Virus record (IMG/VR): IMGVR_UViG_3300012942_000057
Coordinates: 1 to 52,774 of that record
DNA length: 52,774 nucleotides
From: a virus
Taxonomy: Duplodnaviria; Caudoviricetes
Direction: 5' to 3' (one strand)
Under the pieces are notes generated by a model. That model had not been told where the DNA came from. It was given only the letters and a program-made list of their open reading frames with translations, and did no database searches. Numbering within the stretch: position 1 is the first letter of the stretch; each line of letters starts with the position of its first letter. Of this stretch, positions 43,090-52,774 are shown piece after piece. A program made the translations under genes and the position numbers.

Positions 43090-45846
43090 ATGAAACTGCT
43101 GTATACGATGCTGCTTTTCCTAAGCTTCATTAGAATTGGCGGCTGCCAGACACGGATAGACCCGGCCAGCCAGATTTGGTGGCCCGGAGTCACTGGCACC
43201 GCCGATCCCGCGCTTCCGTGCACCGCCGCCAACTACGGCCAGCCGTACACCAACACGGCGGACAGCACGCAATTTATTTGCTCTACAGGCGGTTGGGAGC
43301 AGATTTCTGGCGGCGCAGTAAGCAGTGTATTCGGGCGCACCGGCAGCGTGATCGCCGCCACTGGCGACTATTCCTTTGCGCAGCTAGCAGGCAAGATGAA
43401 TTTCGCCACACAAGGTGTTGGCCTAGTGTCTGTACTCAACGGCGGTACTGGTACTTCCACGCCTTCGCTGGTGCAGGGCGCTAATATAACCATTACTGGT
43501 ACGTGGCCTAACCAGACTATCAATTCCACCGCGAGCGGTATGGTGTTCCCCTCCGCCGGTGTTGCGGTGTCTTCTGGAACTGCTTGGCTAACCTCTCTGA
43601 GCACGCCGTCAGGAGACTTGGTAGGCACAACTGGCACGCAGGCGCTTACGAACAAAACTTTGGACGGCGTATCGCCAACCACCATGAGCTTCTTGGACGC
43701 CACTAGCTCCGTACAGACGCAACTGAACGGAAAGCAGGCTGCTGGCAGCTACATCACTGGACTGTCCGTTGTTTCTGCCAATGGTTTTACTGGAACAGCT
43801 ACATCCTCAACCACTCCTGCAATTACTCTTGACGTGGACGGTGCGCACTATCTGCCGCTTCTCACCGACGAGGTCAATTGGAACGCCAAAGCCTCGCTTT
43901 CCTCTCCTTCGTTCACAGGCACGCCAACTGCGCCAACCGCGCCGCTCGGCACCAATACCACGCAAGTAGCCTCCACCGCGTTCGTGCTGGCCAATCTCCC
44001 AACCATAACCTTTCCGGCTAGCGGCGTCGCCGTATCGAGCGGAACCGGCTGGGGCGCATCACTGGTCGCCCCGAGCGGAGCCTTGGTCGGTACCACCGAT
44101 TCGCAGACACTGTCCAATAAGACACTGGTGGCGCCCGCGCTTGGAACTCCTTCTTCTGGTACGCTCACGAACGTCACCGGACTGCCTCTTACTACCGGGG
44201 TCGTAGGTTTGCTGCCAATTGCGAACGGTGGAACCGGCACCTCCACGCCTTCGCTGGTGCAGGGTGAGAACATCACCATCACAGGTTCCTGGCCGAACCA
44301 AACGATAACCGCCAGCGCCACGGCGGCTACGGCTTTCTCCGCCATAACTGGTGCCACTAATACGGCAGCTGCCATGGTGGTTGGCACCGGGGCCAGCCTA
44401 ACCGCCGCAGGTTCAGGCACCATCGCGGCCACTTCAGCGCCATACAGCGGCCTTACCGGCGACGTGCCAACGTGGAATCAAAACACCACCGGCACCGCCA
44501 CCAATCTTTCTGGGACTCCTGCGTTGCCCAACGGTACGACCGCCACCACGCAGACCACCGGAGACGACACAACCAAGCTGGCCACTGACGCGTTCGTGCT
44601 GGCCAACGCCTACATACTGCCGCAAGCCACTACATCCGTGCTTGGAGGCGTCAAATGCGATGGCACCACGATCGCCTGTGCTTCTGGCGTAATCAGCGCC
44701 ATTGGCGGAGGGGCGGTGTATCCCAGCGGTTCGGGCATTCCTGTGGTTGTCTCTGGCAGCTCGTGGGGCACGACGGTTGCAGCTCCTACAGGAACAATTG
44801 TGGGCACGACCGATACGCAGGCGCTGACCAACAAGACGCTAGACGGCGTGACGCCGACTACGATGGGGTATCTGGATGCTACCAGTTCGATTCAGACGCA
44901 GCTGAATGCCAAACAGGCAACGCTAGCCTTGACCACGACAGGAACCAGTGGATCATCCACGCTCACTGGAGCGACGCTGAATATTCCGAATTATACCTAC
45001 ACGCTGCCGCAGGCCACCACATCCGTGCTTGGAGGAGTGAAGCCGGACGGTACCACATGCACGACGACCGCAGGCGTACTGACTTGCCCTGGAAGCGGCG
45101 GAATTTCCGGACTAACGACCGGATATATCCCGGTCGCCAGTTCGGCTACCGCCATTGGCAACTCGCACATCGACGATGGTGCGACCGCAACAGGAGTCGT
45201 CACCTCTACTGAGCCTATTATCGCTCCAGGCTTCGGAACATCAGGGACAACGCCAGGCAAACTCAGCCTCGTGGCTGGTACGGGTAGCATACCGTCGCTG
45301 GCAGCTAACTCGGCTGGTTTCGCCGGACCTGCAACAGGCGGTACGGCCTATCTCTACAAACTACCGGCAACGGCGGTAGCTGGGATACTTCATGCCGCCG
45401 CGCCAGGCACGGTGGACGGAGTAAACGAATCGGCCATCACATCTTCACTGGTATCATTGACGGCAGACGTAACCGGTGCGCTGCCAAACGCAAACCTCGC
45501 CAATCCTTCCACAACCGTAAACGGCGTGACCTGCACCCTCGGCAGCACCTGCACGGTTACGACGAGCGGCATTGCCAACACGACAACCACGGTGGGAACG
45601 ACGGCTATCGCGGCTGGCGCCTGCACCAGCGCGACGACGGCGACCATGACGGGCGTCATGACCACCTCGGTGTTCATCTTCACTCCGAATGCGGACGTCT
45701 CGGGCGTGACGGGCTGGGGATCTACGGGAGGCCTGGCGATTGTGGCATGGCCTACTGCGAACACGCTGAACTACAAGGTGTGCAACCAAACGGCAGGCTC
45801 AATCACGCCGTCTGCCTCGGTGACGTTCAATGTGGGGGCACGATGA
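43090..45846 (+). CDS. repetitive fibre-like protein with N-terminal signal peptide
   Basis: [20 protein letters not shown]; fibre motifs [61 protein letters not shown]. Confidence 0.8.
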
Positions 45847-46565
45847 TTCGGATTCTCGCAGTTCTGTCGCTGATGCTGCTCTATGGGCAGGAGGGAGCTT
45901 TTGCGCAGTTCACCGTGCCGATGCACACTGGCGCGCTAGCCGCAGCTCCGGCAACCGGCATCGCCTACGTCACGACCTGCGACTCGGGCGGAAGCGGCGT
46001 AACCAGCGATTCTTGTACTGTCACAGGGGTTCCTGCCGGTAGCGTCATTCTGTTCATGGCGAACGGTAGCGGCGCGGCTATATCTGGGACCGACTCCGCA
46101 GGCGGAACTGTCAGCCAGATCGGGACAAATCAAACATGGGATGCGGGCAGCGCAGTCGCCAATCTTTGGTATGTTGCCAATGCCTCTGCCGGTACCCACA
46201 CACTGACAGCCCATTTTGCCGGATCTGTCAACTTTACCCGCTTTCAGGTGATGGTGTTTTCGGGAGCGAATACATCGTCTCCCATTGACACTTCGGCGAT
46301 CGCAGCCGGCAGCGGCACGGCGGCCAGCAGCGGAAACATGACGACCGCCAATGCGAATGAGATGCTGGTCGGATTTATCGTCGGCACGTCCGCGACAGGA
46401 ATTACGCCTGGTTCGCCGCCGACCTTCACTCTTGTCCAGGCCGGCACTGGCGTTTATTTTGCTGCGGAATATGCCATTGCGGGCACGACCGGAAGCTATG
46501 CGGCGACGGCTGGACTTACGCCCTCAGTGCAGTGGGTGGTATTAGCGGCGGCACTCAAACAATGA
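45843..46565 (+). CDS. beta-sandwich protein with signal peptide
   Basis: [26 protein letters not shown] coupling; ends AAALKQ. Confidence 0.75.
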
Positions 46566-52200: not shown

Positions 52201-52774
52201 TGCGGGGGTTCGATGGTCTATCCGGGCGCGGGCGTCGCGGTGTCGACGGGAAGCGGATGGGGGACGTCGATTGCGGCGGCGAATATACCGCTGCTGAACG
52301 CAAGCAATACGTTTACTGGGACGGCGAATACCTTTAATGGGATTTTGAATATAAATTACGGCTCTTCCCTTGTGATGTTGTCAACCCCCGCAACCTCGGC
52401 ATCCCCTCTTGTCGATAGCGACATCTTCAACATTCATGGAAGCTATTGGGATGGAATCTCGGCACAGGATACCTTCTGGACAATTCAGAACGTAATGTCC
52501 AATTCGTCCAATCCGACCAGTACGCTTACATTCTCTCCACCGACCTCTAATCCGCCAGGAGGATTCTCTGTAGCCGTTCCAGCGTTGCAGATCACTAAAA
52601 ATCTCGTCAACAATGTCGGTATGCAGATGGCCAGCGGGGCGGGCTGCGCGATCACGGCTGGCGCCGTCGGCAACACTTGCACAGGCTCGATCACGCTGCC
52701 CGTGGCGGAACCGGATACGTCGTACTCGATCACCGGATGCTCGGTGGTGAACCCTTCCGACGGCGCTGTGACGG
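49222..52774 (+). CDS. large fibre/receptor-binding-like protein with signal peptide, truncated by the window end
   Basis: Absent from the ORF track because no stop falls in the window; MKKILALLCFIVAVTAPCVG-QNQVNPASQVRWP; shares its N-terminal module and a repeat with 43090; ends TLPVAEPDTSYSI. Confidence 0.8.
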   Translation, partial: MKKILALLCFIVAVTAPCVGQNQVNPASQVRWPAVTGVVDPAPPTWACAPANYGQPYTNTASGDNFVCAAAGWVKVSSSGEGTVIASPQFRMFLQPSAGTQATAQGAAIGQNGVAPMMQGQINSDLYATGSGGNGVSNALASSDCTVVGCLLNRPQTSTDTENIWSLLNSASEYTHATDSKYGAFSNYFWNAGLNQSGVVERDANPNVCFWKDQLQQLQSNMNCRPTYSTYSSFGRYGQGSIPVSEAEDSIYGMFGRGIGQLHGGRFYAYSVGDKALQEQYMYYRGGTIQGSDEGDEGVYIGMVEDTPPSGVVTTGGTGTTDITVNFTASAGHQADGHILMDTQSPETSGLIVSQTVGSANLPNTATTSDTHAVNTGYAVTTASCGTYTARNNPTVSTCAITGLVGAFTAGPACVADWKNPEQIRITATASGTITAGFTLVHPAGTAIEQGGLCGDYVVMGNGSSTPLAAPITAVTSYAIVGSPTATTFDYVVVYKSGQDGKLQIRVPSLPTETIRGTITRNSNVVSITNPGGNTAFAYNGYVAPSAAAITVSGATPSDLNGTVTGTVVTPSTMTWNQTGANETGSGGTISVAGLNNYFAYCGAETVGDPGVLLSSTSQTAQTGELYLEPNHCSWAANDSVVQPNFYSQSLTAQRTILSGFTPDIQGGGSMAPSLLEVSGAAYSGQTLNYVQDLDLPAQYQGYGGTFVPHKYFNSTDIYDNLFNLRYAPANGKTLFTIGCDPGGCSSNNYDWTVFQLTGTSGSNYFDFSPANNYFYVANSGLLSGTYMGAQSAIGVSGQVSHGFVLPGTAAPYTFYFTAVGQSNTTAVLGTGTPGDSSGTLGMKTLDSANIVAGAPAPANFTVFNGGTSGSTTYTYACTAVTANGESTAGTGTTATGNATLSATNYNSIACAGVPGAQSLNIYRTSGGATQGKIGSAPNGNTNNNAVVQFQDTGLAGDGTSPPGANTTGRFTGYGSTANFTIGGSPICTVASGCGGSMVYPGAGVAVSTGSGWGTSIAAANIPLLNASNTFTGTANTFNGILNINYGSSLVMLSTPATSASPLVDSDIFNIHGSYWDGISAQDTFWTIQNVMSNSSNPTSTLTFSPPTSNPPGGFSVAVPALQITKNLVNNVGMQMASGAGCAITAGAVGNTCTGSITLPVAEPDTSYSITGCSVVNPSDGAVT

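Follow-up and report, generated by a model that had tools for sequence, protein, structure and literature searches.

We analysed a stretch of 52,774 bases (the window), which is the whole of the IMG/VR virus record IMGVR_UViG_3300012942_000057 and is ~52% complete by estimate. At its right end, behind the baseplate and fibre genes of a tailed phage, lie four consecutive open reading frames (ORFs) that each appear to begin with a Sec-type signal peptide, preceded by a short fibre-like protein without a signal peptide, the "stub". We propose that the four proteins may be distal fibres that are exported, folded outside the cytoplasm and joined to the virion only at lysis. The features on which this reading draws are the following, with ORFs named by their first position:

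42686..43075 (+): stub fibre without a signal peptide, 129 amino acids (aa), the proposed docking platform
43090..45846 (+): long fibre, predicted to be exported, 918 aa, consisting of leader, N-domain, tail-fibre repeats and C-terminal tip domain
43090..43146 (+): leader of ORF 43090, residues 1-19, predicted signal peptidase I (SPase I) cut before Gln20
43147..43314 (+): conserved N-domain of ORF 43090, residues 20 to ~75
45843..46565 (+): small all-beta protein with a predicted signal peptide, 240 aa
46562..49195 (+): spike-like protein with a predicted signal peptide, 877 aa, with an immunoglobulin-like (Ig-like) Big_2 region ahead of a right-handed beta-helix
49222..52774 (+): second fibre or spike with the N-domain, >1184 aa, running off the end of the record
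49222-49281 (+): leader of ORF 49222
49282 to ~49461 (+): N-domain of ORF 49222

In each of the four ORFs the first residues form a basic n-region and a hydrophobic core (11-15 residues), after which comes a small residue followed by Gln, and this Gln is at position +1 of the predicted SPase I site in 4/4 cases. Re-reading of the ORFs thus confirmed the starts and leaders (GGC-Q, AFA-Q, LYA-Q and CVG-Q) given by an earlier interpretation of the letters alone (the sequence-only reading), as well as its statement that the genes are coupled or tightly packed behind the baseplate and fibre genes. The start codons of 45843 and 46562 overlap the preceding stop codons as ATGA, and the ATG of 49222, with the leader MKKILALLCFIVAVTAPCVG followed by Q, lies 26 nucleotides (nt) past the preceding stop, behind AAAGGAA. 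For ORF 43090, alignment with homologues also places Gln at the mature end, and the only other in-frame ATG, GTG or TTG in the first 80 codons is codon 7, i.e. within the leader. The next starts of ORF 49222 (codons 24 and 30) would trim the conserved domain. In ORF 45843 downstream starts are possible at codons 25 and 27, and its leader is therefore the least secure of the four. The check for downstream starts thus favours the leaders of 43090 and 49222 and leaves alternatives for 45843.

Signal peptides were called with a heuristic of our own (not SignalP), i.e. an uncharged core of 8-12 residues with a mean Kyte-Doolittle value >=2.0, a net positive n-region and small residues at positions -1 and -3. 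For comparison, 14 labelled head, tail and baseplate proteins without signal peptides, encoded at 16.8-43 kb, were scored. None of them was flagged at its first start, and the portal was flagged only at an internal GTG. The hits among other likely real genes were a small membrane protein at 11311 as well as the portal and a GIY-YIG ORF (internal starts only); the remaining hits were a 94-aa ORF at 19248 (start ten codons in) and apparent shadow frames. Even at the host-like rate given below (41/305), four signal-peptide-like ORFs in succession would have a probability of ~3e-4.

Two other types of leader were considered and rejected. A lipobox does not tolerate charged residues immediately before it (PROSITE PS51257). 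The sequence-only reading had considered that 43090 could be a lipoprotein (IGGC), which is not supported: with Arg at -4 its R-I-G-G-C breaks the rule for an SPase II site, and the homologues have AxA-Q without Cys. An SAR domain is a weakly hydrophobic transmembrane domain at the N-terminus that lacks a cleavage site and stays uncleaved, and the cores observed here are strongly hydrophobic and followed by AxA-Q-type sites.

The predicted mature proteins of 43090 and 49222 have an N-domain of ~55 residues in common, which starts at the predicted mature Gln and contains two invariant Cys and the motif NYGQPY. A profile was built from the mature parts only, with zero leader residues, and was searched against 1.84 billion representative proteins. 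It retrieved 319 clusters with E-values <=0.001, 130 of them at <=1e-10. In 142 of the 150 matches listed the N-domain begins at residue 18-34. The heuristic classified 139 of 149 examined N-termini as signal-peptide-like, 122 of these 139 with a small residue followed by Gln at the site; on inspection, the ten failures were mostly long n-regions or truncated gene calls. The NYGQPY motif is found at a median distance of 28 residues from the predicted cut (range 25-38). The family leaders are unrelated in sequence and share a common plan, while the adjoining domain is conserved. Because such a leader is kept across the family though it was absent from the query, it would be functional, which is the strongest argument for this view.

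Narrow N-domain patterns led to one genome locus, in an Acidobacteria metagenome-assembled genome (MAG), and to ten viral loci. The MAG (G001) has two members of the N-domain family. In 400 kb of it (contig C15, 1-400000; L102-L121) the heuristic flagged 41 of 305 ORFs, with a small residue followed by Gln at the site in 21 of the 41, and Gln follows 13 of 34 AxA-type sites compared to a background of 6% Gln. The phage leaders thus look as though they follow the host phylum's own cleavage-site habit. As an observation in its own right, the enrichment in the MAG amounts to a Q-rule-like habit outside Bacteroidota; in Bacteroidetes such a preference for Gln at +1 is called the Q-rule, and the paper on that rule has 0 occurrences of Acidobacteria (PMC5837995). 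Strict membership in the Bacteroidetes Q-rule was rejected for the leaders: Gln(+1) is present, but the host phylum is very probably Acidobacteriota, not Bacteroidota. The host is very probably an acidobacterium because, among 50,697 phage records, matches were obtained only to phages of Tunturiibacter (Acidobacteriota). In summary, the export claimed by the sequence-only reading is upheld as far as the leaders behave as real Sec/SPase I signals, in conserved position and with Gln at +1, while export and cleavage themselves are predicted from these properties. We hold with good confidence that the leaders are genuine export signals.

The mature parts of the four proteins contain 53 Cys in 3139 residues, whereas 18 signal-peptide-free proteins of this phage contain 57 in 6870 residues, i.e. 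the density is about twofold higher (Fisher p 2.6e-4). The counts for the mature parts of the three complete ORFs are all even (10 in 43090, 2 in 45843 and 20 in 46562). The Cys residues are mostly found in close pairs, and all 10 of 43090 form local pairs, as had been noted before. Density, parity and pairing fit periplasmic disulfide formation, without proving disulfides. The proposal of oxidative folding thus agrees with the Cys content, and the disulfides themselves are a prediction.

What kinds of proteins follow the leaders was addressed with profile, sequence and fold searches. On its own, the N-domain is modelled as a small beta domain (block-mean predicted local distance difference test (pLDDT) values of 81-88 for model residues 11-50). 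Searches of this model against PDB gave no fold match at E <=0.001, the best being trimerisation domains of collagen XV/XVIII (E-values 0.3-0.7), and searches against BFVD gave none at E <=0.001 either, the best (E-value 7e-3) being collagen-like and tail-fibre entries. We take these entries as leads only. ORF 43090 matches the tail fiber family phrog_7032 (E-value 1.1e-9). Its repeat modules were found in 89 ORFs in 80 viral loci, 87 of which have a complete 5′-end; 70 of the 87 have ordinary N-termini without a signal peptide and 17 have signal-peptide-like ones (a few doubtful). The ORFs that clearly have a signal peptide are the closest relatives of 43090 (L003, L004, L006, L007, L012, L020, L034 and L062/L064). 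Judged by these repeats, which the sequence-only reading had rightly recognised as those of phage fibres, 43090 is a true fibre by descent, fused to an unusual front end. A tblastn search with 43090 against the 50,697 phage records had no match at E <=1e-6, and a sequence search of solved structures had none for 43090 and 49222.

The atlas neighbours of ORF 45843 are viral clusters of 231-498 aa; its model is poor (mean pLDDT 55.7), and the fold search gave no match at E <=0.001. ORF 46562 has a Big_2 match (E-value 2.2e-6), the only family returned by Pfam. The first two atlas structure matches cover residues 231-861 and are to beta-helix proteins, with template modelling scores of 0.82-0.86. 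The helix is 29-30% identical (E-values 1e-38 to 4e-37) to gp17 of phage Tunturi_1 and gp114 of phage Tunturi_4, the sole matches of 46562 among the phage records, and a sequence search of solved structures yielded only a marginal Ig-like match (E-value 0.03). Residues 118-342 of ORF 49222 match only gp12 of Tunturi_1/2 in the phage records (27.6% identity, E-value 3e-6), and the protein is 30% identical over 1040 aa to an N-domain protein of another viral contig (L092). Taken together, the four ORFs may well encode distal host-recognition proteins, i.e. two long fibres or spikes with the N-domain, a spike with a beta-helix and a small protein of beta structure.

The stub at 42686 has neither a leader nor Cys. 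It combines an N-terminal motif, TPNxGL...W...N.N..LD, with a C-terminal domain of the type NG...DY..G..IT...GD...Y. Of 172 candidate homologues, 157 pass E <=0.001, and their contigs measure up to ~100 kb. The first 45 residues resemble the N-termini of long fibres without signal peptides: a hidden Markov model (HMM) of the N-terminal motif matched the N-terminus of a 1218-aa fibre of this type in L005 (E-value 6.5e-4 among 906 ORFs) and Tunturi_4 gp112 (4.9e-5), with weaker in-register matches in L073/L075 and L066. The full-length HMM had no match in the ORFs of L003-L082 and no significant one in L020, L084, L092 and L093. An HMM of the C-terminal 50 residues identified homologous domains in L088 and L096. 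Ranked after these and the paralogues of the window, the three best matches among 3009 ORFs, all sub-threshold, were in L084 (E-value 0.14), L093 (0.43) and L020 (0.49), each at the C-terminal end of the ORF that directly precedes an N-domain gene; in L092 the motif was also recognised by eye. Within the window, the C-terminal domain is additionally present in the ORFs 28925-29923 (E-value 1.4e-11), 19101-19529 (3.6e-7) and 30964-31542 (2.3e-5). These copies in head/neck-region proteins may be extra docking sites for exported fibres or may represent a generic domain.

A complex of three copies of the stub (46-row alignment) and three copies of N-domain residues 1-60 (34-row alignment) was modelled. 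It scored 0.84, compared to 0.00 for the best control, with the verdict "supports binding". Of 80 solved complexes 58 reach the mark for this score, as do 2 of 110 mismatched pairs; these counts hold only roughly here, as custom alignments and 3+3 copies depart from the calibration. The runs agreed in at least 100% of the contacts, and the pLDDT of the partners was at least 86. In the modelled interface, stub residues 91-124 contact the mature N-domain at its residues 1-14, i.e. at the very end that signal-peptide cleavage would create. Solved relatives are lacking for both proteins, which makes a memorised complex an unlikely source of the pass. The docking at lysis suggested by the sequence-only reading has thus gained a controlled complex model with 42686 and a recurrent upstream stub domain, while presence in the virion remains a prediction.

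The arrangement recurs in other viruses. The relative G402 (101,166 bases, rated 100% complete) has the order hub, wedge, 346-aa fibre, 126-aa stub and three signal-peptide-bearing proteins of 1507, 940 and 720 aa, of which the first has the N-domain and the last a beta-helix. Beyond these genes follow a leaderless endolysin (phrog_315, E-value 3.4e-17), a small ORF with apparently two hydrophobic helices, i.e. holin-like, and a strand switch. N-domain proteins with signal peptides were also found on other viral contigs with different head and tail genes (L020, L092, L093/L094 and L096), and L096 has three of them in succession. In L084, from the Acidobacteria MAG, the N-domain copy lies behind a tape measure and a J-like tail protein, i.e. 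in a siphovirus layout. Directly past the N-domain gene of L093 (13288-14063) we noted a signal-peptide-like ORF of 136 aa and an ORF of 76 aa with a lipobox-like LFGC; by sequence, this pair resembles an i-/o-spanin pair.

Two cultured phages carry comparable genes. In the podovirus Tunturi_1 of Tunturiibacter psychrotolerans X5P2, gp12, gp13, gp14, gp16 and gp17 have signal-peptide-type leaders, with Ala followed by Gln at the site in 4/5; the deposited labels are "tail spike protein" for gp14 and "virion structural protein" for gp17. In the siphovirus Tunturi_4 of T. empetritectus M8UP27, gp113 ("tail protein") and gp114 have such leaders and are directly preceded by gp112, the stub homologue, while the tail proteins within the first 50 kb have no leaders. 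The words "signal peptide" are absent from the accessible text of the paper on these phages, whose supplementary tables may differ (PMC11924767). A further protein of Tunturi_1, gp78 (L122; 53744-54946, minus strand; "tail protein"), has a lipoprotein-type leader (…LLLTGC), and its gene belongs to the early region, a long way from the tail genes.

Outside viral contigs, an orphan N-domain gene with a signal peptide (980 aa) was found on contig C2 of G001 (L127 15220-18162) among non-phage cell genes, i.e. undecaprenyl-glycosyltransferase-like, ABC permease-like, response regulator and LrgAB-like genes (labels read off the N-termini). The gene could represent a fibre that was domesticated, or a remnant. 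The N-domain was detected in just one of 401 sampled Acidobacteriota genomes (two profiles, with a filter under which at most 15 or at most 6 candidates per genome were scored).

The remainder of the record gives the gene context of the four ORFs. On the left side are a minus-strand primase-like gene (DUF3854/DUF5906/VapE-like), a tRNA-Pro, the small terminase, a GIY-YIG endonuclease and the portal. The plus-strand late module (~24-43 kb) encodes a head protease and the major head protein, a tail sheath and a tube-like protein (phrog_280, labelled solely "virion structural protein"), a tape measure that contains a transglycosylase part, the baseplate hub, the wedge (phrog_6) and another baseplate protein. 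Downstream of the baseplate genes follow a 320-aa fibre without a signal peptide and the 129-aa stub, each with a weak match to a tail-fibre PHROG family. Judged by this gene content, the phage is of the myovirus type and the record is not a prophage with host flanks. A scan for promoters and terminators at 41-52.8 kb gave counts equal to those of shuffled sequences, so a single operon is neither backed nor broken by it. The fibre gene is:

41709..42671 (+): short tail fibre without a signal peptide, 320 aa, match to phrog_2557 (virion structural protein, E-value 5.9e-6)

This fibre is not flagged by the heuristic. It has a weak match to Gp53-like_C (E-value 0.0058, short of the Pfam cut-off), and its N-terminal 225 residues are kept in the 101-kb relative (46% identity over 218 aa, L088), with a variable C-terminus.

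Several features of the record are of interest independent of the four ORFs. The portal (16861-19302; Phage_portal_3, E-value 2.6e-85) has an InPase-like C-terminal domain (PF18823, residues 677-798, E-value 5.9e-34). The large-terminase-like ORF in the region 8568-11368 has 538 aa, whereas its counterpart in the 101-kb relative has 429 aa (the two are 77% identical over 426 aa), and a GIY-YIG/NUMOD3 homing-endonuclease-like ORF (10559-11368) lies behind the terminase; two similar ORFs are found near the terminase of the relative. The GC content is 68-73% at 2001-6000, which spans the minus-strand primase-like gene and its neighbours, versus 56-64% elsewhere. The tRNA-Pro(TGG) (7603-7679) lies where the minus-strand replication genes give way to the plus-strand packaging genes. 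The lytic transglycosylase part of the tape measure (34747-36393) matches several PHROG lysis/tail-lysin families (E-values ~1e-16), and the neighbouring ORF 36375-37310 has a tail-fibre PHROG match (1.9e-34) as well as an endolysin PHROG match (2.3e-6).

Based on these results, we propose the following sequence of events. The four proteins would be made late, alongside the tail genes. They would be translocated by Sec and cut by SPase I ahead of the invariant Gln, as suggested by the sequence rules and by conservation, and would then fold in the periplasm and form disulfides, as suggested by the density, parity and pairing of Cys. Heads, tails and the stub without a signal peptide (42686-43075) would be assembled in the cytoplasm. 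The stub would be in the cytoplasm, like the remaining virion parts, and docking would therefore have to await mixing of the compartments. Once the inner membrane has been breached by the holin, the N-domain proteins would, according to the model, dock with their newly exposed N-terminus on the C-terminal domain of the stub and complete the virion; holin lesions would let particles and periplasmic fibres meet within the still-intact outer membrane. A canonical holin makes large membrane lesions, as known from work on lambda, and the leaderless endolysin and holin-like ORF of G402 fit a holin of this kind. Docked fibres would be trimmed to an N-terminal Gln or pyroglutamate. That the four ORFs encode distal fibres which are exported by Sec, folded oxidatively and docked on virions after the holin breach is a reading that, in our estimation, could go either way. 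That the exported proteins reach the virions through the stub is plausible and falls just short of that mark, and only tentatively do we extend the proposal to many tailed phages of Acidobacteria, which would build their virions in two compartments and join distal fibres to a stub at the holin breach.

A number of points weigh against this proposal. Every step of the mechanism is derived from sequence or from a model. The heuristic is permissive, as several shadow ORFs and internal starts were flagged too. The complex score expresses the confidence of the model and is no measure of binding, and its calibration is loosened as described. The stub-domain matches upstream of the N-domain genes of L084, L093 and L020 are individually non-significant (E-values 0.14-0.49), and the occurrence of the domain in three other head/neck-region proteins implies that it is no dedicated socket. 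ORFs 45843 and 46562 are without the N-domain, and the docking model does not account for their attachment. The orphan chromosomal gene, with no phage gene within 20 kb, implies that the N-domain family can exist without a virion. The accessible text of the Tunturi paper has no virion proteomics, with 0 occurrences of "mass spectrometry" and "SDS-PAGE" (PMC11924767). Our literature search found no paper on signal peptides of tail fibres, tailspikes or receptor-binding proteins (RBPs), although supplementary tables may list some. Furthermore, we know of no precedent among tailed phages for docking only after a membrane breach.

The alternative that survives best, which we nevertheless consider rather unlikely, is that the proteins are exported and do not belong to the virion, i.e. 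that they are phage-encoded secreted or surface fibres and depolymerases, with an N-domain that binds an element of the cell envelope. They could then serve to remodel or degrade host exopolysaccharide, to mask receptors or to stick infected cells to their neighbours, functions that we likewise see as doubtful. The leaders and the Cys pattern fit a secreted role equally well, and the virion already has a fibre without a signal peptide at 41709. ORF 46562 is most similar to secreted bacterial beta-helix/Big_2 proteins from Acidobacteriota and other phyla, and 45843 resembles terminal domains of secreted bacterial proteins. The orphan gene outside a phage context points in the same direction, as does the association of N-domain genes with different tail types (a myovirus here, the siphovirus layout with tape measure and J-like protein in L084). 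In contrast, the rarity of the N-domain in the sampled Acidobacteriota genomes argues against a secreted role, and so does the position of three to five such genes (~10 kb) inside the late tail operon and ahead of the endolysin, where receptor-binding proteins lie. One N-domain is present on several large proteins per phage, as is reportedly the case for the anchor domains of multi-RBP systems. In addition, the complex model with the stub, which has no signal peptide, passes its controls, and the stub domain recurs upstream of N-domain genes. A bacterial family with the same plan of signal peptide, conserved beta-rich N-domain and variable tip is known, the MAT fibres (PMC10769870), and fits the secreted role.

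A second alternative, which we regard as improbable, is that the leaders do not serve export. The fibres would then assemble in the cytoplasm, and the leader would either be a pro-peptide that a phage protease removes or tether the protein to the membrane from the cytoplasmic side. Fibres of tailed phages are cytoplasmic as a rule, the majority of the homologous fibre ORFs (70 of 87 complete ones) are leaderless, and with a cytoplasmic partner such as the modelled one no mixing of compartments would be needed. According to a published note, some signal-peptide calls for phage capsid proteins reflect N-termini cleaved by a protease (PMC10367356). However, the basic n-region, the core of 10-15 residues and the AxA-Q site are kept in 139 of 149 clusters despite sequence drift, the cores have too few residues to anchor a protein stably in a membrane, and the Gln at +1 matches the signal peptides of the host phylum. 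The doubled Cys density and the even counts fit the periplasm, and the model places docking at the free N-terminus, which would arise by cleavage.

An artefact, i.e. wrong starts or host genes beyond a prophage end, is very improbable: the alternative starts of 45843 and the ~52% completeness of the record would leave room for it, but 43090 has no other start outside its leader, the viral record has replication genes at its left, the complete relative G402 keeps the signal-peptide genes between stub and endolysin, cultured phage genomes carry like genes, and the GC content is even across the four-ORF region and in line with the remaining contig. The G402 layout, the cultured phages and the start check have already largely refuted this explanation. 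Host genes beyond an attR site were dropped as a candidate for the viral nature of the record, the replication genes at its left and the layout of G402.

If a whole group of soil phages routinely exports its receptor-binding proteins, completion of the virion would hinge on host Sec, signal peptidase, the disulfide machinery and the order of lysis events, and with construction in two compartments the assembly of tailed virions would gain an extracytoplasmic maturation step. Pipelines for host-range prediction and annotation would misread such genes as morons or as secreted host proteins, and phage display and engineering in such hosts could exploit periplasmic folding. If the proteins are secreted instead, phages would equip infected Acidobacteria with large surface fibres and depolymerases, which would matter for the turnover of soil exopolysaccharides. 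Either reading is directly testable, because the cultured phages Tunturi_1 and Tunturi_4 carry like genes.

According to textbook knowledge, tailed phages are assembled wholly in the cytoplasm. Tail fibres or tailspikes with an added export step would therefore stand apart, and our search of the literature suggests that they are new as far as it reached. Branched multi-RBP systems, such as those of CBA120 and G7C, are said to combine several spikes or fibres that share a short N-terminal plug-in module and have variable tips; they differ from the present case in that all parts are reportedly cytoplasmic and without signal peptides. A receptor-binding virion protein with a Sec signal peptide and periplasmic disulfide folding is pIII of the filamentous phages. 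The virions of Ff phages are, however, extruded at the membrane, in contrast to the cytoplasmic assembly of heads and tails expected here.

Tailed phages do send late lysis proteins via host Sec, i.e. fOg44 Lys44 and SAR endolysins, which wait in the envelope for the holin (PMC6116005). These proteins are enzymes and not fibres or spikes, and SAR domains are uncleaved, whereas the leaders described here have AxA-Q sites. Prophages of P. gingivalis contain genes with Q-rule signal peptides, the predicted cleavage of which exposes Gln as in the host secretome (PMC10367356). That set comprises five genes with unassigned function that are not called fibres and belong to Bacteroidota, while the host phylum here is Acidobacteriota. 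In Pantoea, the bacteriophage tailspike-like enzyme WceF modifies the glycan biofilm of its own producer (PMC7949094); it is bacterial and a single enzyme, compared to a set of fibres in a phage tail module. A further likeness is to the MAT fibres of Bdellovibrio bacteriovorus, fibre-like trimers with a signal peptide, an adjoining conserved beta-rich domain and variable C-terminal tips, for which an anchoring function of the N-domain has been proposed (PMC10769870). The likeness is one of plan only. MAT genes lie on the chromosome of a predatory bacterium, and their N-domain spans ~130 aa (PMC10769870), whereas the genes described here close the late tail operon of a phage, their N-domain has ~55 aa with two Cys, and its modelled partner is a phage stub.

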